A stretch of 64,000 nucleotides of DNA. Origin: Eledone cirrhosa (lineage: Eukaryota). Both the position numbers and the translations under genes were made by a program. Below, one piece after another: positions 1,562 to 63,900 of the stretch. Under the pieces are notes generated by a model. It saw only the letters and a program-made list of their open reading frames with translations. It was not told the DNA's origin and made no database searches. Numbering within the stretch: position 1 is the first letter of the stretch; the number at the start of each line of letters is the position of its first letter. Location of the stretch: the NCBI GenBank assembly GCA_964016885.1, contig OZ024743.1, positions 72,478,001 to 72,542,000 of the forward strand, read 5' to 3'.

Positions 1562-1717
<156 letters not shown>

Positions 1718-1864
1718 AAAACATTTTTTCGCTCTACATGGCTGAATACAATAAATGTAATCTGAGTTTTTCGAATATGAACAATAACGTTCGATTCGTT
1801 TGCAATTATGCAAACAAGCCTCACTTTAAAAGCCATGGCAGTAGCATTAACTCTTCAAACAGAA

Positions 1865-1908
1865 CTGCAGACACTAATGTTTCTGGGTATCATCCTTCAT
1901 CAGTACAG
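1865..1908 (-). ncRNA. Type I hammerhead ribozyme, intact core
   Basis: CTGTA-CTGATGA-aggatgataccca-GAAA-cattagtg-TC-TGCAG; stem I ctgta/tgcag, stem III ca/tg. Confidence 0.8.
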
Positions 1909-2477
1909 CTCACTGTTCACCTGCCAACTCTCAGAGCTAGTGAAAGTATATGGTATTTTCTAAAATATACAGTGACTGATCGGCCTGACTTAAACTTTAG
2001 CAGACCTATTGATCAGTCAGATCTGCATATTAGCAGATCCACTGATTACCCAGATTTGCATATCAGCAGACGGGCCAGTCAGTTTCCTATATACGAGCGA
2101 TAAATGGCCGGCTTTGCTATATTCGGATAAAAAACATTTTGCCTGCAGTTCTGTTCAGATGCCAACACATGAGCAAGAATGAAGTGTTCATTGTACTGAC
2201 ATGGCTTTAAAAATGAGGCTTGTTTTCATAATTGCAAACGAATCGAATGTTATTAATATTCGAAAAACTCAGATTACATTTATTGTATTCCGCTATGTAG
2301 AGCGAAAAAGTTTTATCGCTCTTATACAGGAAACTAACTGGCCAGTCTGCTGATATGCAAATCTGGGTAATCAGTGGATCTGCTAATATGCAGATCTGAC
2401 TGATCAGTAATCACTGTATATTTTAGAAAATAGCATATACTTTCACTAGCTCTGATAGTTGGCAGGTGAACAGTGAG

Positions 2478-2521
2478 CTGTACTGATGCAGGGTGATACC
2501 CAGAAACATTAGTGTCTGCAG
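2478..2521 (+). ncRNA. Type I hammerhead ribozyme (A9C variant)
   Basis: CTGTA-CTGATGC-agggtgataccca-GAAA-cattagtg-TC-TGCAG; stem II gggt/accc. Confidence 0.65.
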
Positions 2522-2671
2522 TTCTGTGTAGATGCCAACACATGAGCAAGAATGAAGTGTTAATTCTACTGCCATGGCTTTAAAAATGAAGCTTCTTTGC
2601 GTAATTGTAAAACGAATCGAATGTTATTAATATTCGAAAAAATCAGATTACATTTATATATATATATATAA

Positions 2672-3539: not shown

Positions 3540-3778
3540 TACCAATAAAAAGGGTTTCTGATATAGGGACCATGCCAGTAAGTTTCGTGAAGGGGAAAGT
3601 CGATTAAATTGACCCCAGTGTGTGTGCGACTGGTATTAACGATCAAACGATCGACCCTGTAAGTTGGGAAAGCAAAGCTAACTTTGGCGGGATTAGAATT
3701 CAGAAGGTAAAGGACCATAACTCTATACCACAAAGCATGTTGTCCAAAGTTCTACCGATACTGCCAATCCACCGCCCA
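3540..3778 (-). mobile_element. tRNA-derived SINE family A (Meta-domain-like core), diverged
   Basis: Shares ctaccgatactgccaatccaccgccc and a degenerate aaggcaaagttaacctcggcgggatttgaac core with other copies. Confidence 0.75.
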
Positions 3779-4213: not shown

Positions 4214-6830
4214 CTACAGGCGCATACTCTGAGCGGGCCCGTTCTCTCGGACTAGACTCGCCACTTTCACCCACCTTTCAAGAAACTTGCTAGAAGACAG
4301 CACTTGCCTCTCCACCCTGATTTTCCTCTTCAAGTGAAACTTGAAAAAGTTAATCAGGGTTTGGCCGGAAAGGAAAGTCTCCGTCTTAACCCTTTCGATC
4401 TTGTCAACCACACAATCTCTTTCGCCATGGCCACCAGGCAGATGGAAACCGCGCGCCCTTCCTCCTCCTTAACGAAGGATGGCGGGGCTATCTGCACAAT
4501 TGTCTCAGTCGATAACCGGATTCGTCCTACCCGCGACAGCAACTGTTCGACATAGCCGCGCAAGTCAGCAATTGTCAGGCACTTAACGAGTGCGTGCAGG
4601 ACGGTTTCGTGCCCAGCACGCAACTCGGACAGGCTCAGCTGACAGCACCTCTGTGCCTGTAGAGCTTATCCTGAACCGGCAACGCTCCCCGGTAGCACTG
4701 CCAAGCCAGGGATTTCTGGAAGCTGTCCATAGGCCCCGGGCTGAAAGTTCTCTTGAAGAGAGTGAACAGCTGATCCTCTTCGACGCCCATGGTCTCCCCG
4801 AGAACGTCGCCGCTCTTCCCGTCCACTAGCCCTCTATACAATGCCAAGGTGGATGTTCCACCGATACTAGTGTCCAGCGGGTAGAGGGCGGTGAGCGCTT
4901 GGAAATATTCCAGCTTCCAAGTGCTATCCCTCGGTCTTTTCCCGGTCCAGGACTGCAGCACTGTCAAGGAGACGAGCTGGAGAAAAGCGCGTCTGCCAAA
5001 CGGGTCCGAGCATCTGGAGGTGTTTGCTGTACGACACAATCACGGTGACGTCGTCGCCGTAAGTGGGCAAGGATCTCCCGCATCCCAGTTCACATGGGAC
5101 GCTCCTCATCGTCTCCAATTTGTGCAGTAACGGCTCGAGGGAAAATAGATACAAGAGGGACAATAGGGGACAAACCTGGCGGACCACACGCATGATGGTA
5201 TATGGCTGCGACAGGTGACATTTTACCCTCAAAATCGAGCAGATGTCGCTGTGCATCGCAACAATTCAGCCCCTAAAAGCGGGCCCGAAATCGGCCGCCT
5301 CGACGATCACAGCCAAGTACCGATTGCCGACACTATCAAATGCTTTAGATTCATCCAAGTTGAACAGGGCCTCACGCGTGCCAGGTTCCTTAACAAGCCT
5401 CTAATGATGTATCGCATGAGATGGAGATGGTCGTGGAGGGATCTGTCCGGAATGGTCATGCCTGCGCTTCTCCCACCAGATCGTCAACGACAAGTGCCAA
5501 TCTCTTTGCTAACACCTTGGCGAAAACCGTGAACTTTGCGTTCAGCAGAGCTATGGGCCTGAGGTTGTCTATGACGTCGCCCTTGTTCGGGTCTTTTCTC
5601 AGCAGCGCTACCGCTCCCCGACTCACAAAATTGGCAATGTTCCCGTTCTGCTGCCAGTTGCAGTAGACGTCTGCCAAGAGGTCGCCGAACAAGTATGGCA
5701 TGTACACATAAAGTTCGTAGAGCAGAGCATCCAAACCTAGCGATTTGCCCCTCATGCAGTCAGACATCACTTTCCGTATTTAACCTGCTGTTATCGGATT
5801 TTCGCAGCCCTGCGCTGCGGTCGTTGAGAGCCGCAGCAGTCTGTCGAGGTATGCACCGAAGTCTACACTCTGATCCGGCCCGCCGCCACTCCCGAACAGT
5901 TGATTAAAGTGCTGTTGAAAAGCCGCACACATATGATCGGGTTCGGGCAAAATGCGCCCATTTTGAACTGGCAAAGATCTTGCGTTGAACAATTAGTCGA
6001 GTGCCAATCTCGCCGCAAGCACGTTGGTTGCGATGCCTGTGCAAAACAGTTATTCTAGCTTTGTAACAAGCTCTCCCTCTACTCTGTTTTCCTCTATCAC
6101 TATTCCTTTCCTAAACCTTATGGATTCTACTCTAATAGCCCTTTTCAGGTAAACCACCACATGTTGTTGACGATCGTACTCGTCAAGGCACGCTTAACTA
6201 ATTCGCTAATCCGGACTCTGTAAGCTTTGCGCGCCGAGAACGACGCGTTCAGTTTCCAATAACCGGGCCCATGCCTATGGAGCCTATCTAAGTCAACTTC
6301 ACAGATCACAAATTTGTTGTCCGTGTAGTCGACTACTTTAAATTGTGGAGAACCTAAACTAGCCTTATCTGTTTCCCTATAGAATACCCTATCTAAATAC
6401 GATCTGGATGACCCGATGCGGTTTGCCCGTCTGTACATTGGCACATTCGGATAAACCAGTCTATACCTGTCAGACAGTTCAACACGTCTGAGCAGGTTGT
6501 TGAGGCTTTTACACTCTCTTCCTCTGTATGAAAGCATTGCCTTCGCTGCCTGTCACGTCTAGCACCACCGACTTACCTTCTGGGTCCAAGAAAATGGCCC
6601 GTATGGCGAGATCGAAGGCTCTCCGAAAAATCACAGCAACTCCACCCCGGCTCCCAGACGGCTTGGTGATGCGTATACATCGTAGCCGCCGAAGACCGGT
6701 GCGAAGGCTCGTGTTTCGGAGATTCTGGTCTCGCTGATGGCCACCACATCTATGTTAGTTGAGCAGGTGACCCTGCTTCCAAGATGATGCCAGGCCACGT
6801 ACATTTACACTGCCTATTCTGAGTACGGCC
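4214..6830 (-). pseudogene. Tx1-like ORF2 (AP-endonuclease + reverse transcriptase), frameshifted and internally deleted
   Basis: SRSYLDRVF..TD, GPGYWKLNAS, LRPIALLNAKFTVFAKVLAKRL, RQVCPLL..LY, YGDDV, ETVLHALVKC. Confidence 0.88.
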
Positions 6831-13604: not shown

Positions 13605-13624
13605 TATTCACATGTAGACGCGTG

Positions 13625-13918
13625 CAACATCCGTTCATATATATGGGCTTACACCATTGAGACCAATTAAGGTATGTCACTAACTTAAAACCAAATATTG
13701 TATTTTATCTGACGAAAGCGTACAACGCCCGTTCATATATATAGGCTTACACCATTGAGACCAATTAAGGTATGTCACTAACTTAAAACCAAATATTGTA
13801 TTTTATCTGACTAAAGCGTACAACGTCCGTTCATATAAATAGGCTTACACCATTGAGACCAACTAAGGTATGTCACTAACTTAAAACTAAATATTGTATT
13901 TTATCTAACGAAAGCGTA
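13625..13918. repeat. Three tandem copies of a ~98-bp unit
   Basis: ggcttacaccattgagaccaa..aaggtatgtcactaacttaaaac recurs three times. Confidence 0.92.
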
Positions 13919-13996
13919 CTTAAATCCTCGTACCCTTGAAATATGTATAATAAAATAAATATGGTTCTGTAAAGATATGTTCATTTATTAATATTC

Positions 13997-17679: not shown

Positions 17680-18090
17680 AATAATTGTTTCTACTTTTTG
17701 GCACAAGGCCAGCAATTACTCAGTGCATTACTGGTGCTTTACTTTATCGACCCCGTAAGGATGAAAGGCAAAGTTAACCTCGGCGGGATTTGAACTCAGA
17801 ATGGCAAGGGCCGTAACTCTATGAGTCAAAGCATGGCGTCCAACCATCTACCGATACTGCCAATCCACCGCCATGTTAATATATATAATAATTGTTTCTA
17901 CTTTAGGCACAATGCCAGCAATTACCAGTGCATTACTGGTACTTTATTTTATCGACCCCGTAAGGATGAAAGGCAAAGTCAACCTCGGCAGGATTTGAAC
18001 CCATATATAATAATTATTTCTACGTTAGGCACAAGGCCAGCAATTATCCAGTGCATTACTGGTACTTTATTTTATCGACCCCGTAAGGAT
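17680..18090 (-). mobile_element. SINE family A: one full copy plus two tandem 3' partials
   Basis: ggcacaa(g/t)gccagcaatta..tttatcgaccccgtaaggat occurs three times. Confidence 0.9.
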
Positions 18091-27449: not shown

Positions 27450-27792
27450 TGCTTTTGGCACAAGGCCAGCAATTATCCCAATGCATTATTGGTACTTCAT
27501 TAATAATGCATTGGGATAATTGCTGGCCTTGTGCAAAAAGTAGAAACAAGTAATATATATATTTATATAAGAAAATTAATCAGTCATATATATATATTAA
27601 TTGATTCTACTTTTTGGCACAAGGTCAGTAATTTACTCAGTACATTACTGGTACTTTATTTTATCGACCCCGTAAGGATGAAAGGCAAAGTTAAACTCGG
27701 CGGGATTTTAACTCAGAATGGCAAGGGCCGTAACTCTATGCGTCAAAGCATGGCGTCCGACGCCTCTACCGATACTGCCAATCCACCACCCT
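27450..27792 (-). mobile_element. SINE family A copy preceded by a palindrome of two SINE 3' ends
   Basis: 27456-27535 gcacaaggccagcaattatcccaatgcattatt..aataatgcattgggataattgctggccttgtgc; full copy at 27600-27792. Confidence 0.88.
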
Positions 27793-32192: not shown

Positions 32193-32269
32193 ATAATAAT
32201 ACAACTGAAGACTAAAATCCAAAGAGGGCTCGATAAGGAAAATATATATCAAATATATAAGAACCGTAG

Positions 32270-33260
32270 AGCAAATAACCTCTCTATACAGGTTGAAGCC
32301 AATCTCTCGGTCGTTAATTACCTCGACGTTACCCTCAATTTATTGAATGGGTTGTATTACCCGTATAGAAAGCCGAATGATACGCTTAATTACATAAGTA
32401 AGCATTCCAACCATCCTGCCAGCATAACCAAGAACCTGGTAAAAAACGTTTCGTTGAGGCTTTCCCGTCTTTCCACCAACGAGCGCATTTTCAACGACCA
32501 TTCCACATATTACAATGAAGCACTTGCTCGAAGTGGATTTGTCGATAAGGTAGCATATATAGAGTACGAAAATAGACCTAGAAGAAATAGATCCCGTCGC
32601 ATTTGTTGGTTTAACCCACCATATAATATGGAGGTGGCCACACCATTAGCTAAGACCTTTCTTTCCCTTATTACGAAGCACTTTCCCCCTACACATAAAT
32701 ATAGTAAAATTGTTAATAGAAATAGTATTAACATTTCTTACTCTACGACTCCTAACCTTGCACATAACATCACAGCTTCAAATTTAGGTAAACTACCTAG
32801 CCGTAGGAACACGTGCAACCCTGTAGTTAGTACTAACTGTACTTGTAGGAATCGGGCTGATTGCCCCTATCCGGGAAATGCCTCTCTAGTAACATTGTCT
32901 ACAAATGTAAGGTTGTAACACCCACGTCCCGTAGGGCCTACATAGGGTTAACCGCCAATAGTTTCAAGCAGCGTCTTTACATGCATACCCATTCTTTTCG
33001 TTACCCTCTAAGAAGGAATATGACGTCACTTTCAGCTTATATCTGGAGTCTAAAAGACAACCACACCCAATATAAGTTACACTGGGAGATCCTAGCTAGG
33101 GCTAGATCGTATAACGGAAATAAAAGACCATGTGACCTCTGCGCCGCTGAGGCCCTGGAAATACTCTACGCCACAGACCACATCTTAAACAAAAAATCTG
33201 AGGCAATTTCGGCTTGTAAACATAAATTGCACAAAACCTTCCTGTATTACAGCCCCACGT
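32270..33260 (+). pseudogene. PLE RT thumb + CxCx5C linker + GIY-YIG endonuclease (one frameshift near 32870)
   Basis: NYLDVTLNL..YRKPN..SNHP..WFNPPY..CTCRNRADCP / GKCL..NIVY..YIGLT..FKQR..H..LSAYIW..CDLCAAE..LNKKSE..CKH. Confidence 0.9.
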
Positions 33261-34202
33261 TATACCATAACGGATACCACGATCTATACGTGGATATTTT
33301 ACGTCTTGATGTGGGAGCTAAGTATATGTTTTGTTTATTCCTTTACTTATTTGCATAGGTAAGTATATATTACCCGTATGTTTTGTGAAGGTATGTATAG
33401 CTTCTCGTACGTATATTTGACTGTTTGGCGTATAATTTTTACATATTCTGGTATTTAGGGTTTGGCTATGTGTACACGGGAGTTTTGCGTCTGCGTGAGT
33501 ATGCAGGTTCGTACGTATGGTGGGTGTGTGTATATGTGTACTTCTTGTTTTAGTTGACTTACGTCTCCGAACATTCGTGTATTTATTTGTAGGTATGTGT
33601 GTGCTCTTGTTATATACGTATTTATTTACTTATATACGTTTATATAATTATTTAATTATTTGTACACAAGCATACACACACATATTTATATGTGCATGGT
33701 TTTGTATACCTATGGTAAGGTTTTGCGTATGCTTGTGTATGTACGTATCTGTTTGCGTGTATGTATTTATTTGTTTCTATTACTTCTGTATTGTATTTAT
33801 TTACTTTGTTCTTAACTCTGTAGCGGAGATTCATTTGGTCTCCTAGTTAGAATTTTAGTCTACGACTTCTGCTATACCATTTACGTGGTTTTGTCTTTGC
33901 GTGCTATTGTTGTCCACGCTCCACATATGACTTATTATCTTCGTTTTTTCCGTTCATTGCCAGAGAACGTCTCTATGCACCACCTAAGAGAACATTAGTC
34001 TACGGCCTCTTTTATACCATAAACGTGGTTCTGTCTTTGCGCGTAATTGTTTTTCACCGCTCCTATTAATGACGTATTATACGTTTTTTCCCGTTCTTTG
34101 CCAGCGAACGTTTCCACGAACCAAAGTATCGTCTTCCTGTCTTCCTCCGGTTGCAACGTTTTTTTGAAATATCCAGTTCTGCGTTTACAGATTGACTTTG
34201 TT

Positions 34203-38070: not shown

Positions 38071-39556
38071 TGACAAACCACTGCATTTTTCACGAATAGT
38101 GTTAGCCTATAGCTCCAATTGTAAAGATCCTGTTGACTTAAGTTACATAAACAGAAGCTACAATTTATGTTGAATTTTCGATTGAAAACATTTTACAACT
38201 AAGTTTATTGATTTGTTTATAGTTATTTACAAGTAGTTTCGGATTATAATAATATAATATTTATCATTATTAGCTTTGTATCTATGTCTTATTGAATTCC
38301 TCTCCAAACTAGTATATTTCTTAGTGATGTAATACAAAAGTGGTGTGTATGAATGTGCGTAAAACATGATATATTTAATATATTGTTGTTTCTTTATAAA
38401 ATTGTGTAAGTTAATTATAACAAACTTTAACGCACGTTCGCAGCTGCCTTAATAAAAGAACATTAGGACACCAGGTGCATTACTATTCACTGGAAGAAAT
38501 TATAAAATACATCAGACAATTTCCGGTGTGAGTACAGTTGGTGCTGGGTATATTGGTAATGTTGATTGTTGTAACTGTTTAGATGATGATGTTTATGAAA
38601 TATGCCCACGTATGAGTAAATCAATTGAATAAAATAATCCCAATGGAATTTTAAATAATAAGATGTAATTTTTTTCATCATTTTCGACAATTGCAGCGAG
38701 TAAACACAGAAATGCTAGAAGTGTTCGTTGTTAGAAATTATTTTAATTAATTTAGCAGTGGCCGAATATACATGAATGAATACGATACATTGGGGTGGGG
38801 GGTAATATATTGTTGTGATAACAACGATTCTTTATACGTTCCTGTCAGAAACTTGGGGAACTCGCTAATATAAAGAATGGGAAATATTGAGTGTGATGTT
38901 AAATACATCGGTTGGCGTTGTGGTGGCTCATATTGAAAGAGGGTGTGGAGGGAGAGTATGTATTGGTCGTTCTTTCGTGCAAGTCGTTTATAAAACTAAT
39001 ATCACATGAAATAAGACAGCTATATAGTTATCAAGTCGGTAATGTCACAAGAAATGGACAACCAAATACTTATTAATACACTGATATCACAAGTATTGGG
39101 ACAGCTGTATATTTATTAATTCATTAATAACACAAGTATTGAGACATCTATATAGATATCATTTCATTAATAACACAAGTATTGGGACATATATATATAA
39201 TTATCAATTTATTAATAACACAAGTATTGGGACAGCTATATATTTATCATTTGATTAATAACACAAGTAGTGGGACAGCTATATAATTATCATTTCATTA
39301 ATAACACAAATATTGGGACAGATATATAGTTAACAAGTCATTAATAACACGAAAAATGGGACAGTTACAAAGTTATCAAATCATTAATTTCACAAGCAAT
39401 GGGACAGATATATAGCTATCAAGTCATCAATTTCACAAGAAATGGGACAGCTATATAGTTATAACGTCATTAATTTCACAAGAAATGGGACAGTATATAG
39501 TTATCAAGTCTCTAATAACACGAATATTGGGACAGCTATATAGTTATAAAGTAATT

Positions 39557-39746
39557 AATTGTTTCTACTTTTGGCACAAGGCCAGCAATTACCCAGTACA
39601 TGACTGGTACTTTATTTTATCGACCCCGTAAGGATGAAAGGCAAAGTTAACCTCGGCGGGATTTGCACTCAGAATGGAAAGGGCCGTAACTCTATGCGTC
39701 AAAGCATGGCGTCCGACCCTCTACCGATACTGCCAATCCACCGCCC
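39557..39746 (-). mobile_element. SINE family A, full length, TSD-like flanks
   Basis: Flanked by ttataaagtaattaat / ttatagagtcattaat. Confidence 0.92.
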
Positions 39747-39931
39747 TTATAGAGTCATTAATGTCACAAAAAATGTGACAGCTATATAGTTATAAAGTCT
39801 CTAATAACACGAATATTGGGACAGCTATATAGTTATAACGTCATTAATTTCACAAAAAATGTGACAGCTATATAGTTATAAAGTCTCTAATAACACGAAT
39901 ATTGGGACAGCTATATAGTTATAAAGTAACT

Positions 39932-40123
39932 AATTGTTTCTACAATAGGCACAAGGCCAGCAATTATCCAAGTGTATTACTGGTTCTTTATTTTATCGAC
40001 CCCGGTTAGGATGAAAGGCAAAGTTAACCTCGACGGGATTTGAACTCAGAATGGCAAGGGCCGTAACACTATGCGTCAAAGCATGGCGTCCGACCCTATA
40101 CCGATACTGCCAAGTCATCGCCC
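39932..40123 (-). mobile_element. SINE family A, full length, TSD-like flanks
   Basis: Flanked by ttataaagtaactaat / ttataaagtaattaat. Confidence 0.92.
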
Positions 40124-41021
40124 TTATAAAGTAATTAATGTCACAAGAAATGGCACAGATATATAGTTATCAAGTCCCTAACATCACAAGAAAGCGGACA
40201 ACTAGTTATAAAGTCATTAATAACACAAATATTGGGACAGATATATAGTTATCAAGTCATTAATAACACAAACATTGGGACAGATATATAGTTATAAAGT
40301 CATTAATAACACACATATTAGGACAGATATATAGTTATCAAGTCACTAACATCACATAAAATAGGACAACTATATAGTTATCAATTCATTAATAACACAA
40401 ATATTGGGACAGCTATGTACTTATATAGTCACTAACATCACAAGAAACGGGACAGCTATGTAGTTATAAATTCATAACGATTGGGACAGCTATAAAGTTA
40501 ACTTTCAAAGTTGTGCAATTATTTTAAAACTTAAACTTTTTATAAGTACCTTTCTGTAGGATTGAAGTTTGAGGTTTAATATATATTTCTTTGGAAAATA
40601 TGTCGTATTTTATTGACACACGTGTTGGTGAATGTTGCAGTATTGACGTTTTTTATTTACGTTGATATTGTTCCTTTTGTTACTTCTACCTTGCTGATGT
40701 TGCTTTGAATATCAGCCGTCAAAGTTAGGAGTTGGTGCCCTCATCAGCTATGAGGAATTTCGCTGCACCTCTCCTGCTGTGAATATTACAATGCCTTCTT
40801 TTTAGCTCGACAAGAGGGTGGTTTTATATTGTATCTAAAATATATTCCCATAAAGACTGAAACCACAGGAAAGCTGATTGGGTATCCGTGACCGACCCTG
40901 GGGTGGTTTAACCACAAGTAATTATAAAAATTACAGCAAAAAGCATTTAGAAACAGGTAGACAATAAACTTACAGATCGATCTGTGGCTGGTTTTATGGA
41001 GACAGAACTATTAATATTCAT

Positions 41022-41350: not shown

Positions 41351-42875
41351 AATAACAATAATGAGGATATTAATGGTTTCTTTATTAACCACAAAGGATG
41401 ACACAAAATATAACATTAAGAACAGCGCAGGACAATACACGACGGTACAAATGAGCATTTCTGCATGTAAAAAAACAAAAACAGAGGATGTAACAAAAAA
41501 GAAATAAGAAAAAATTCCCCAATAGGGGGGTAGACTTCCGAGGGTCACTCGTGGAGAAAGCCCATTAAAAAAGACACGGTGACCCTGACCACCAAGGCAA
41601 TTGCCCTCTCCCAGTTGTCCACCTCTAATTTACAGTCGCATACTCAAAGCAGGCCCATTCACTCGGGCCATGCTTGCCACTCTGACGTATCTTTCAACAA
41701 ATTGCTGGGAAGGGAGCACTTCCTTCTCCACCCTTTTGGGGGAAATTTGTAAACGTTAATCAGGGCATCAATGAAGAGGTAAATGCTTGTCTTCAGCCCT
41801 TTAAAACGCGTCCACAACACAACCTCTTTCGCCATGGCCACCAGGCAGATAAAAACTGCTTGCCCTGCCCGGCTAAAGGAAGGCGGCGGGGCAATCCTCA
41901 CAATGGACTCAGCAGTTAGCCGGATCCGTCCTACACGCGATAGTAGGTGTTCTACATGAAACCACAATTCAGCAAAGTTTGGACACTGGACGAGTGTGTG
42001 CAGGGCGGTTTCAGTGCCCTACGTGCATCTAGGACAGGTCCAGCTGACGGCATTTCCATACCTGTAGAGTTTATGCCGAACTGGCAAAGCTCCCCTGTAA
42101 CACTGCCAGGCCACGGATTTCTGGAGGTTTCCCATGGGCCCCGGCTCGAAAGTTCTCCCGAAGCGATTGGCTAGTTGATTTTCCTCGACGTCCACAGTCT
42201 CCCCGTGGACTTTGTTACTCTTTCCCCCCACTAAACCATTATAGAATGCCAAGGTGGAATTTCCACCGATCGCACCACCAGAGTGGTCGAAATCTGTTAG
42301 CGCATGAAGACATTCCAGCCTCCAAACGCTTCCTCTCGGTCTTCGCTTGACCCAGGACTGAAGCTCCGTCAAGGAGACGACCTGGGGAAAAACGCATCTA
42401 ACAAACGGCGACCACACCTGTTCACCGTCCTGAAAGAGATGGAGATGTAATAGCCTCAGCGTATGTCTGCACATCATCAGGCACGGCTTTCCCAGCCCTC
42501 GATGTAGTCGGTGTTGACAGCAGATAGACTGCCTGACCTTCAGAGTGTGTCCCTTCCACAAAAAGCGAAAGAGCAAACGCTCTAGCACAGTCAGGTTAAG
42601 CTTAAGACAAGGCACAATGATCAGGCCGTAGTAGATGACGATCGTGATGAACGCGTTCGCCACCTCCGCTTGACCTTTCAGGGATAGGTTCCTCTCGGCC
42701 CATTTCTGGGTGAGAGACGCCACCTTGCTTGTCACATCGTCCCAATTTTTTGTCTGTCTGGAGGTCCGGACCGAAGCAGACCCCTAGCAATTTAATCGGT
42801 CCGTCCGTCCAACACCCGACAACGTTGTTGGACGACATGGACCTGCCTCTTCAGGTACAGAGCGGCAGGCCCACC
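41350..42875 (-). mobile_element. Tx1-like LINE 3' fragment, 5'-truncated (copy 2)
   Basis: KWAERNLSLKG, RFLWKG, QKSVAWQCYRGALPVR..CPRC; 3' end aataaagaaacc. Confidence 0.9.
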
Positions 42876-46404: not shown

Positions 46405-46593
46405 TATAGAATAATAATAATAATATTCGATTCATTTGCAAGCAAATGGACTCATTACGGTATGTTTTATAGATGACCATCGCCATCCATTCGTTCTGGC
46501 GGTGAACAGAACGATAGTGATGGCCATCTATAAAACATAGCAGGACGAGGCTCTTTTATTGCAAACGCATCAAATATTATTATTATTCGATAT
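46405..46593. repeat. Imperfect hairpin (~190 bp)
   Basis: tatgttttatagatgaccatcgc / gtgatggccatctataaaacata, with outer (AAT)/(ATT) arms. Confidence 0.75.
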
Positions 46594-48091
46594 AAAACTC
46601 ACGAATTATTAAGAAAATGCGGTAAAGGGAACAAGTCGGGAAAGTAAAATAAAGATTGATATAATTCATCCCATTCTGAGCTTGCTGAGGAAAAAAGAGG
46701 ATTCGTAATCTCGAGTGTACTTTTTCAAACCCAAAGAGGTAAACATATATGTGAAGCAAATACTGACAACATTTCCTGGAACATTAATAGAAAGTAGCAA
46801 TGAAGGTTATATCATTAACAGCATAAATGAAAATACTCTGAGAACATTAAAAAGCAAAATACATTGAATAATAATAACAGCGATTAGGTTTGAAAAGATA
46901 TTGAGAATGTAATAACATAACACACCATGCATGGTGTTTTTCCAATATCACTTTGGAAACCTTTGCGATTTCAATCTAGATATCAAGCAACAAGAATACA
47001 AGCAACATAGATAAACTCACTGACTTCTGTTTGAAATACTTATCCAGCTCACATCAAGCTGTAGCAACAACATTCAATGAATTAATGAAAATATAAGAAA
47101 CAACATCCGACTGTTTATCACGGAGGGAAGCAATATTACTTCCAACGGCGCAGTCCCTAGATACCCGATTCATTATATACTAATAAACCTGTGTACCAGC
47201 ATTATATAAAATCCAGACATTTTCTAACATCTATACCGCTGTTCCAAGGGCAATTTTGAATACAAAAAGGTAGGATCCGAAATGAATGTGTGAATGGATT
47301 ATACAACTACTTTCATATCTACTTGTTATTCCAAGCAGCAGACAATGAAGCTATCTCATCGTGGTATATGTAGTATAACGAAAAGCCTTCGCATAGCATG
47401 TCCTACATTTAGTTATTAAGGGTTCACATGAACCATGCCATATAGAAATAGGAAGCCTAAATGATAAGCCTACGTAATATTGGAATTATATAAAACGAAG
47501 TATAAAAGCGCATTGAAGATGAAATATTATTCCGCCCAACATTTCTCTGCCGATATATCCCTTGTATATGAATAATTAACAAATATACATCAGACAGATC
47601 CCTCTAGTCCTGCTTGCAATGTACAGAAGAAACCAGAACTTCAAATTAATAATTTGGATGTGAAATTATATAGCTTCATAAGATGAGGAGAAAACTGCTA
47701 TTTACTGGCTTCTCAATGCACCATAGTAAAATTGATAGATTTAGCATAGAAAGGAATGGATTTGATAAAGATAAAACTTCTAAGTGGATGTAAAGAATAT
47801 CAGAAACAATAAAATAATATTTAATTATTTATGTTGTAGCAATATAAGCAATAAAATATACAACATTTAGACGTTGACAAAACAATCTACAAATAATATA
47901 AGAAAAACAATACAAATTAAGATTTAATAAGAAAAGTGTAGAGGGACATATTTTGTTCATCCGATACTGTAGAAGTGTTTGGAGAGAATATGCGTTAGAA
48001 TTATAGGCAGCAATGGCACGAAAGCAATGGAAGAAAGACATACATAGAACGTTTAGTTTTACCCCCGCAAGATTTATAACTAGAATCAAAG

Positions 48092-60919: not shown

Positions 60920-63900
60920 TCATTATTAACCACAAGTGTTTACATAAAGTATACATTAAGGACAGTACATGTCAATGCAGGATGGTACAGATGGGCATGT
61001 CTGCGTGTAAAAAACAAAAACAGAGGATGTAATAAAAAATAACAATGAAAAATTCCCTAATACGGGGGAGACTTCCAAGGCACATTCGTGGAGAAAGCCC
61101 ATTAAAAAGCCACACTGACCCTGACCACCAGGGCAAGTGCCCTCTCCCAGTTTTCCATATTCAATTTACAGACACGTACTCAGAGTAGGTACATTCACTC
61201 GGGCCATTCTTCCCTCCCTCACCCATCTTTCAACAAAATGCTGGGAAGAGAGCACTTCCCTTTCTACCCTGATTTTCTTTTTCAAATGAAATTTGAAAAA
61301 GGTAATCTGGGCATCACCGAAGAGGTAAGGGCTCGTCTTCAGCCCTTTCAAACGTGTCCACCATACTATCTATTTCGCCATGGCCACCAGACAGATAAAA
61401 ACTGCCTGCCCTTCCCGGCTAAAGTAAGAGGGCGGGGCAATCCTCACGATGGACTCAGCTGATAGCTGGATGCGTCCTACACGTGACAGCAGGTGTTCGA
61501 CATAAACCGACAAGATAGCAATGCTCGGACACTGGACGAGTGCGTGCAGGACGGTTTCGTCGCCCTGTGCGCATCGCGGACATGCCCGGCTGACGGCACC
61601 TCCATGCCTGTAAAGTTTATCCCGAACTGGCAAAACACCCCGGTAGCACTGCCAGGCAAGGGATTTCTGGAAGTTGTCCATAGGCCCCGGCCCGAAAGTC
61701 CTTCCGAAGAGATTGGCTAGTTGATTTTCGTCGACGCCTAGAGTTTCCCCAAGTACGTCGTCTCTCTTTTCCTACACTAATCCTCTATAGAACGCCAAGA
61801 TGGAGTTTCCACCGATCACATTGCCCGATTGGTCGAGGGCGCAGTGAGCGCTTGATGACATTTCAGTCTCCAAGCGCTACCTCTCAGTCTTCGCTTGACC
61901 CAGGACTGCAGTTCCGTTAAGGAGACGAGCTGAAGAAAGACGCGTCTAGCAAATGGCGACCACACCAGATCACCGTCGAGGAAGAGGTGGAGATGTCGTA
62001 TCCTGAGCGCGTATCTGCACATCATCAGCCACGGCATGCCCAGCCCTCCACGTAGCGGGTGTTGACAGCAGATGGACCGCCTGACCATCGGAGCGCGTCC
62101 CACAAAAAGCGAAAGAGCAAACGCTCCAGCGCAGTCAGGCGGGGCTTAGCACAAGGTACGACGGCCAGGCGGTAGTACATTATGGACGTGAAGTACGCGT
62201 TAGCGACCTCCGCTCGACCTTTCAGGGATAGCTTCATCTCCGCCCATTTCTGGGTGAGAGAAGCTATCCTGCTCGTCACCTCGTCCTAGTTTTTATCCGT
62301 CTGGAGTTCCGGACCGAACCAGACCCCTAGCAATTTAACTGCCCGAAGACGCTGTTAGACGGCATGGACCTGCCTCTCCAGGTGCCGAGTTGCAGGCACA
62401 CTGACATTTCCTGAATGATCATTGCGGCTGTCACCGCTTAGTATTCTCTTAATGCAGTGCCGATCGTTTCGATGTGTTTGGCGTTCGACACCACTTCGGA
62501 GACATCGTCCGCATATGCTGACACGGATCTTCTGCACCCTACTTCGCGCGGGATCCCTCTCAACGTCTCCAATTTGTACAGTAATGGCACGAGAGTCAAT
62601 ACGTACAAGATGTACGAGAGGGGACATCCTTGGCGGACCGAGCGCATGATGTTGAACAGTTCCGAAAGGTGACCGTTCACTCTCACCACAGAGCAGATGT
62701 CGCTGTGCATGGTAGCGATCCGGCCTCTGAAGATGGGCCCAATGCCAGCCGCCCCCAGGACTGCCGCTAGGTAACGATGGTCGACCCTATGGAAAGCTTT
62801 CGACTGATCTAAATTGATCAAGGACCCACCCGTCCCAGGTTCCTTAGCTACCCTCTCTACGATGTTTCGCATGACGTGTAGGTTGTCGTGGATGGAACTG
62901 TCGGGAATGGCGCATGACTGCGTTGCGTCTCTCCCATCAGATCACCAACGACAAGCGCCAACCTCTTTGCTAGCACTTTGGCCAAAATCTTGAACTCTGT
63001 GTTTAGCAGAGTTATGGGCCTGAAATGATCTATGTTATCCCCCTTGATCGGATCCTTTCTCAGCAGCCCCACCGCTCCTCGACTCACAGACCTGGGAAAT
63101 TCTCCCGTTCTGTTGCCAGCTGCAGTAGACGTCCGCCAAGAGGCCTCCGAACAACTCTGGCATCTGTACGCAAAGTTCATAGGGCAGACCATCCAATTCA
63201 GGCGATTTAGCCTTTGTGCAGCCAGTCACTGCCTGCCGTACTTCAGCGGCTGTTATCGGCTTTTCGCAACACTCTGCCTCGGCAGTCCGTCGAGGTAGAC
63301 ACTAAAGTCCATCCCACGATCCGGCCTGCCGCTGCCCCCAAACAGCTGAGCGAAGTGTCGCTGAAAAGCTCCACACATTTGCCCGGGATCGAGTAGCATG
63401 CACCCGTCGTGGTCCACCAAAGACCGGATCGTGCATTTGTTGCCACGACGCGCCTCCGCCACTCGGGCCCATTGAACGGCTATCGTCCCTTCGTGTCTGA
63501 GAGCACGCACCCTAGCTCTGACAACACAACCTTCGTGCTTTGCATTGAAGAATTGTACGTCGGTCACGATGCCTTTGCTAAGCGCCTCGTCTAATGTTCT
63601 AACTAGTTCTCCCTCTGCTCTGTTTTTCTCTATAGCTAAAGCCTTACTAAACCTAATGGACTCTATTCTAATCGCTCTTTTCATAGCAAACCACCACTTG
63701 TTGTTGACGATGGCCCCCGTCAACGCCCGCTTAACTAGTTCGTTAATCCAGTCTCTGTAGGCCTTACGACCTGGTAAGGACGCGTTTAGCTTCCAGTAGC
63801 TGAGTCCTCGTCTATGAAGCCTATCTAGATCAAGCACACAGATCACGAATGTTTAGTCCGTGTAGCTGACTATCTTGAATTGTGGACAGCCTATGCCTGA

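Follow-up and report, generated by a model that had tools for sequence, protein, structure and literature searches.

The closest described systems to the repeat reported here are the non-LTR retrozymes of animals and the endonuclease-bearing Penelope-like elements. With the former (bioRxiv 10.64898/2026.07.22.740005 and PMC7229834) our family shares a non-coding, low-GC unit containing a type I hammerhead, a copy number in the thousands, units that follow one another head to tail, a predicted circle that is highly self-paired, and coexistence with Penelope-like elements. As both this class and its proposed link to Penelope have already been published in these same two sources, the novelty lies in the family itself, with unusually clear evidence at the level of single insertions; the earlier case for Penelope mobilising retrozymes was built on co-occurrence and terminal-repeat homology. 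Penelope-like elements are described, in PMC8557442 and PMC3846280, as carrying an inverted truncated copy and, optionally, a ‘tail’ of 30–40 bp at one end; in vitro, Penelope starts reverse transcription at two internal sites, with both target strands being cut and extended, and the length of the tail equals the spacing of the two start sites (PMC11167929).

The window analysed here is a stretch of 64,000 nucleotides from Eledone cirrhosa. Close to its beginning we see two arms, one minus and one plus, of a single non-coding repeat flanked on both sides by (TA)n tracts. Working from left to right, the first tract (1562..1717), which from its sequence and from outer-end flanks across the family is the likely target site, gives way to the minus arm (1718..2140, minus strand); tracing and alignment to the unit of locus L077 take this arm from unit position 167 through 437/1 to 177, a complete turn and ~10 nt more, with its outer end at what we term the long (‘tail’, L) site. 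The plus arm (2144..2657, plus strand; traced and aligned in the same way) runs from unit 1 through 437 to 144, its outer end lying at the short (S) site next to the right-hand (TA)n tract (2658..2671). The two arms meet head to head at 2132..2144, a junction with short homology to both as judged by sequence and alignment, and the locus is a typical S + L two-arm case. Comparison of three contig runs with this stretch gave short pieces only, none of which extends across the arm junction, so that the assembly is neither confirmed nor called into question by them.

As a copy it is both old and decayed. The L077 alignment reveals a 24-nt deletion in the minus arm at 1858|1857, and two 30-nt deletions in the plus arm, at 2311|2312 and near 2408; it is because of the latter pair that the plus-arm period in the window is 373 nt instead of 437. 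A repeat scan locates 33-nt subrepeats with octamer-like ATGCA(A/G)AT words, of candidate promoter role, at 1997..2071 on the minus strand, and with alignment shows two of the three to be left in the plus arm (2346..2408). An earlier note, made from the letters of this stretch, had correctly recognised both copies, their (TA)n flanks and the 373-nt period, but had ended the minus copy too soon: the arm really reaches 2140, and thus includes 2104..2140 (minus strand; unit ~167–203), which matches other loci of the family and is by alignment absent from the plus arm. The proposed 373-nt monomer has to be given up, the family unit being 437–444 nt and the shorter figure reflecting deletions in this one copy. 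The same is true of the proposal that the two copies are circular permutations of each other with ends contiguous at ~2310; since 2104..2140 is present in the minus arm and was lost from the plus arm at 2311|2312, the supposed junction is a 30-nt deletion between short repeats.

Both motifs that the earlier note had called hammerheads (1865–1908 and 2478–2521) do exist, one per strand, and in a scan of both strands of the window these are the sole sites with 8/8 stem-I pairs. By structure matching, the motif of the minus arm (1862..1911, minus strand; predicted cut 1870|1869) has an intact core, but is not pristine as had been claimed, one helix II pair being broken; that of the plus arm (2475..2524, plus strand; predicted cut 2516|2517) bears a substitution of A9, a core position with an established role in the hammerhead, and is likely inactive. 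Across the family, three helical elements surround a conserved core: stem I, of 8 bp; helix II, of 4 bp, the base of which has an A–A apposition; and helix III, of 3 bp, with ten self-complementary bases (duplex −8.8 kcal/mol). The motif is alike to that of axolotl Amex2, which also has a short helix III with a tetraloop and a mismatch at the base of helix II. The core is intact in 134 of 183 sampled copies, the sole common variant of stem I converts a G–U pair to A–U (24/186 copies), and we see no two-sided covariation. As a search of Rfam gave no hammerhead match, the call rests on manual structure matching. The missing Rfam match and the A–A apposition count against our preferred explanation (below), as does folding of the monomer, the active fold being predicted at −10.2 kcal/mol and an alternative that sequesters the core at −16.4 kcal/mol. 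Dimer-activated hammerheads have been described in animals (PMC4209133, PMC7229834), and the family motif, as modelled, would fit such a type.

The repeat and its type I motif are real. The 45-nt hammerhead motif has 683 exact copies in the genome and its reversed control none, and is therefore not a product of chance; a 23-nt motif following the cut has at least 2,689 matches, and the genome search returned 3,093 first-look candidates. Four distinct units bounded by two exact cores measure 437, 437, 438 and 444 nt, a little longer than the 170–400 nt given for animal retrozymes in PMC7229834, with a GC content of 37% and neither LTR nor coding sequence inside the arms. Divergence stands at ~8.5% among loci and 6.8% between the arms of one insertion, indicating that the family is not recent. 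Two or more consecutive hammerheads in tandem are found in a minority of insertions; unlike animal retrozymes, the family rarely exceeds two, shows no long arrays among its 40 best long hits, is mostly arranged head to head with two fixed outer ends, and has no homologous autonomous terminal repeat in the three Penelope-like families compared. It was not found in the published literature searched, although the supplements of PMC7229834 or of bioRxiv 10.64898/2026.07.22.740005 could list it, and a metagenome scan with the family motif gave 0 matches.

With regard to transcription, the unit of L077 has an A-box-like word at 188–199, no B box, and three octamer-like words (unit 246, 279 and 312) in the 33-nt subrepeats; from sequence, we view these words as candidates for an internal promoter. 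Newt satellite 2 has a promoter of snRNA type. A transcription start at unit 380 was suggested by 7 of ~21 second-pass arms ending at 379–386, with an association at first with a second hammerhead (p = 0.008); it went unconfirmed genome-wide, where 30 inspected copies included 3 true ends and none on a second pass. A subfamily defined by a SINE was likewise ruled out, as SINE junctions vary by locus and the SINE is often present in one pass only.

Tracing of 239 loci gave 217 unique insertions after removal of 22 duplicates. The counts below are based on 144 insertions selected by exact motif, most of which lie in the initial portion of a single contig; loci found with a query that begins at a boundary were excluded from the main counts. 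Two arms head to head are seen in 97 of the 144, with one arm in the remaining 47. Outer ends fall at two sites ~33 nt apart, S (cut +140–149) and L (cut +167–182), and where both outer ends of a pair could be classified (71 pairs) the combination is S + L in 63, L + L in 6 and S + S in 2—an inverted, truncated copy with a one-sided tail of 30–40 bp, as in Penelope. These ends run into (TA)n in 90/107 cases for S and 82/96 for L (172/203 together) as against 9/36 other ends at motif-selected loci; the target is thus AT-rich or (TA)n, a context in which target-site duplications are unreadable, and this last point weighs against our explanation.

How the two arms are related can be read from their extents. 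In 36 of the 63 S + L pairs the S arm reaches >30 nt further 5', with the tail on the L arm alone; each arm therefore has sequence that is absent from the other, neither can have been copied from its partner, and both need a longer template. This bears directly on the possibility that the second arm was made at the level of DNA, through fold-back on the first cDNA or later rearrangement. Self-priming has been proposed for Penelope palindromes (PMC3846280), the inner ends lie ≤30 nt apart in 13/63 S + L pairs, and a few palindromes are centred on the cut (L027, L310); with mutually exclusive sequence in 36/63 pairs, the window included, we nonetheless regard an origin of this sort as very improbable. 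In 43 of 44 comparisons, moreover, paired arms carry one and the same two-site subfamily haplotype (random expectation 67%), although later conversion between arms could contribute to this sharing of alleles. At the inner junctions, the alignments of the two arms overlap in 65/97 cases, a figure inflated by loose scoring.

We consider it likely that the window holds one twin-arm insertion of a 437-nt hammerhead repeat, in which a Penelope-like reverse transcriptase/endonuclease primed on both strands and copied the same RNA twice. Under this model, units would be transcribed and part of the RNA would self-cleave, probably as a hammerhead dimer held by the self-complementary helix III; the Penelope-like enzyme would then cut both strands within (TA)n, one target end priming at site S and the other at site L. 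A given cDNA might halt at no particular place, or near L one turn on, or where its template had a cleaved 5' end; ends of this last kind would account for roughly 10% if taken within 2 nt of the cut and for as much as ~30% over the last 10 nt. The two cDNA ends would then be united through short homologies.

The same set of features—two outer-end sites ~33 nt apart with the tail on one side only, a head-to-head junction with short homologies, and (TA)n targets—is shared with endonuclease-bearing Penelope-like elements (PMC8557442, PMC3846280, PMC11167929), as is the placing of a hammerhead upstream of the start sites. What sets the family apart from them is that it has no ORF, that its unit is joined to itself, and that its hammerhead is canonical instead of minimal. 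A second comparison is with L1 twin priming, where two target ends prime on one RNA to yield an inverted junction with short homologies. In our family, by contrast, both primings are internal and at fixed sites, the arms overlap by hundreds of bases, and the inverted structure is the rule instead of a minority outcome. Judged from sequence, an ORF-less family with Penelope-type insertion and all the testable sequence features of animal non-LTR retrozymes fits the data, and our verdict is of a new, non-autonomous retrozyme family of Penelope type. That a non-coding, hammerhead-bearing family is retrotransposed with a Penelope-type insertion signature is thus supported; it adds to the published case insertion-level evidence, in the form of a tail and inverted copy in most insertions of an ORF-less hammerhead repeat. 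The rule of one short and one long arm, together with allele sharing between arms, also offers a testable model for how the inverted structures of Penelope form.

Alternatively, the arms could be ordinary stumps, left by truncation of the terminal repeats of an autonomous Penelope-like element yet to be found, or of its internal-deletion derivative; the hammerhead would then be irrelevant, and the excess of ends at the cut (below) would be due to local structure or short homologies. The insertion architecture is certainly that of Penelope, insertion in vitro is independent of hammerhead cleavage (PMC11167929), and our comparison covered three of many Penelope-like families (first-look candidates numbering 22,374 and 91,967). 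Saying this, arms pass from unit to unit with no ORF or other coding sequence between them in any of the 217 unique insertions, and 108 abnormal ends share no common sequence at a common unit position; there is nothing here of the RT + GIY-YIG ORF between terminal repeats that characterises an autonomous element. A deletion derivative able to spread by itself would, furthermore, be the same thing as our twin-arm explanation. Taking these points with the abrupt drop in stops past the cut and the few ends at a control position, and setting against them the partner-only arms that have no cut excess (all below), we judge the stump origin unlikely.

Autonomous Penelope-like families are present in the genome. 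One is very young (L221–L250), with 102 scored copies at 99–100% protein identity and many open frames of at least 777 aa; it has an RT domain and what we take, by eye, to be an endonuclease motif, and its loci contain no canonical hammerhead that we could find. A second family has a minimal hammerhead of its own. Further Penelope-like loci (L113, L335, L343–L372) have their own hammerhead cores in the 3' region, and one of these families is, presumably, Hydra-like, going by its motifs. The young RT + endonuclease family, the minimal-hammerhead family and the Hydra-like family were each considered as the partner, and set aside as having nothing in common with the unit; no homology to it turned up in the three families compared (30 loci each, with 1.5-kb flanks), a result that weighs against our explanation. 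Some arms (L271, L373–L380) are fused directly to Penelope-like ORF pieces, truncated on the 5' side and drawn from several families, with no simple repeat in between; these are possibly hybrid insertions from two RNAs. In all eight loci that were extended, the rest of the repeat does not resume past the ORF piece. Such fusions are not enriched (6 ends within 100 nt, against 12 for a LINE control), which likewise counts against our explanation, and their orientation is biased by long 3' UTRs. The window itself has a Penelope-like ORF fragment spanning the RT and endonuclease region (32268–33355), the start of which adjoins (TA)n.

Moving to the inner ends of the arms, the earlier note had proposed that the plus copy begins at the predicted cut, 2143/2144. 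Homology is indeed clean from 2144, but the start is less certain than this, by 4–12 nt: 2140–2143 is a recurrent family variant of the four pre-cut bases, 2132–2138 can be aligned to both arms, and the arm may begin anywhere from ~12 nt before the cut up to the cut itself. Of 73 arms selected just 3' of the cut, 22 have their end in the interval +9 to −2, five of them exactly at the cut, whilst 2 of the 51 that continue end within the following 18 nt. Genome-wide, 229 of 2,689 copies have lost the C that precedes the cut; inspection of 30 showed 16 to be true ends, giving an estimate of ~120 overall. The control position gave 37 matches, with 3/30 true ends and ~4 estimated, from a scan of two of the three possible letters with an uncounted denominator. 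Against this, per-base loss prior to inspection of loci is 8.5% across the cut and 6.8% at each of the next two bases; in the first 100 copies that keep the pre-cut base, 18 lack the next two, and 6 of the 18 are ends by eye.

The tabulation of boundaries that the earlier note had suggested therefore divides: the excess at the cut is there in motif-selected copies, and absent from arms that were not so selected and entered as partners, 4/44 of which stop in +11..−2 and 10/54 in +40..+12. By eye, 6–9 of the 22 near-cut ends pair with a partner ending at unit 15–40, and an imperfect inverted repeat within the unit could join such arms without cleavage. Most arms read through the cut intact. We read the sequences as showing that cleaved RNA did serve as template, though for a minority of arms; what is supported of the imprint idea is that, family-wide, 5' ends are over-represented at the predicted cut, a difference from the anole element, whose RNA reads show no such excess. 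That cleavage mainly sets the boundaries is not supported, as it is on the 3' side that the arms have fixed ends, at two internal positions, and the cut is read through in most of them.

The templates were probably of two kinds, some cleaved and linear and others with the junction intact, the latter being about equally likely to have been a circle or an uncleaved multimer. That the main template was a covalently closed monomer circle of 437 nt, copied by rolling-circle reverse transcription, is the idea of the earlier note with its size corrected, and we put it at somewhat below an even chance. Of the arms that get as far as the cut, ~70% or more pass over it with no indels; in 26 of 144 insertions it is crossed at least twice; and no long array turned up among the 40 best hits, where arms attain ~1.1 kb at most. 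Taken together, these observations favour a circle as the means of regaining length. In addition, 20 of 71 arms at risk (S, 13/48; L, 7/23) stop near L one turn after their start, as does the minus arm of the window, at a rate of ~0.011 per nt compared with 0.004 (Poisson p ~1e-4 against the neighbouring rate). The circular monomer has a predicted fold of −136.9 kcal/mol versus −94.3 ± 5.1 kcal/mol for 60 shuffles, the two passes of one arm share a haplotype in 18/19 cases, and related animal elements form circles (PMC7229834).

Other observations point away from a closed circle. One locus has differing haplotypes in its two passes, and in the window two variants absent from the first plus pass are common to the second and to the minus arm, although three-way sharing over all loci is flat (8, 6, 6). 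The stop near L falls where the unit has its longest T-run, a feature that may in itself encourage switching and make alignments less sharp, and this second excess fits either a circle or another primer acting on that RNA. Of 25 arms at risk, four run through a first cut and end at the following one, as the window possibly does too, and arms ending in this manner require a linear 5' end. If the plus arm of the window starts at one cut and crosses the second intact, a partly cleaved, linear RNA of two units fits it better than a monomer circle; and with the 2310 junction being a deletion, the argument for circular RNA that the earlier note had drawn from it no longer stands.

A more specific version, which we offer tentatively and think rather more apt to be wrong than right, would make these insertions the fossil record of a dimeric Penelope-like enzyme at work on one ribozyme-processed RNA, circular or as a nicked circle: each cut strand would prime at its own fixed site, and the cDNAs would travel round the unit, pausing where they began and halting where self-cleavage had ended the RNA. 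If true, this would document the proposed retrozyme cycle directly in genomic sequence, and would explain the tail and inverted repeat of Penelope in general.

An abundant SINE-like repeat of ~180 nt has 23 hits in the window (e.g. 3650–3770, 17685–17866, 27601–27784 and 39559–39739). At several loci of the family (L002, L004, L011, L027, L079, L085, L102, L204 and L257) it has inserted, repeatedly and with differing 5' junctions, at an AT-rich hairpin at unit 109/110; by eye it is tRNA-like, and ARAGORN finds no tRNA in four loci. A palindromic stretch at 46413–46601, whose outer parts resemble unit ~89–128 on both strands, adjoins a copy of this SINE, and two further copies are included in an array of a 43-nt unit (39015–40475) with a higher-order period of 377 nt, in which no hammerhead was found. 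The window also has three tandem copies of a 98-nt unit with 94% matches (13620–13919), and minus-strand fragments of one LINE family at 4232–5003, 41743–42750 and 61169–62530.
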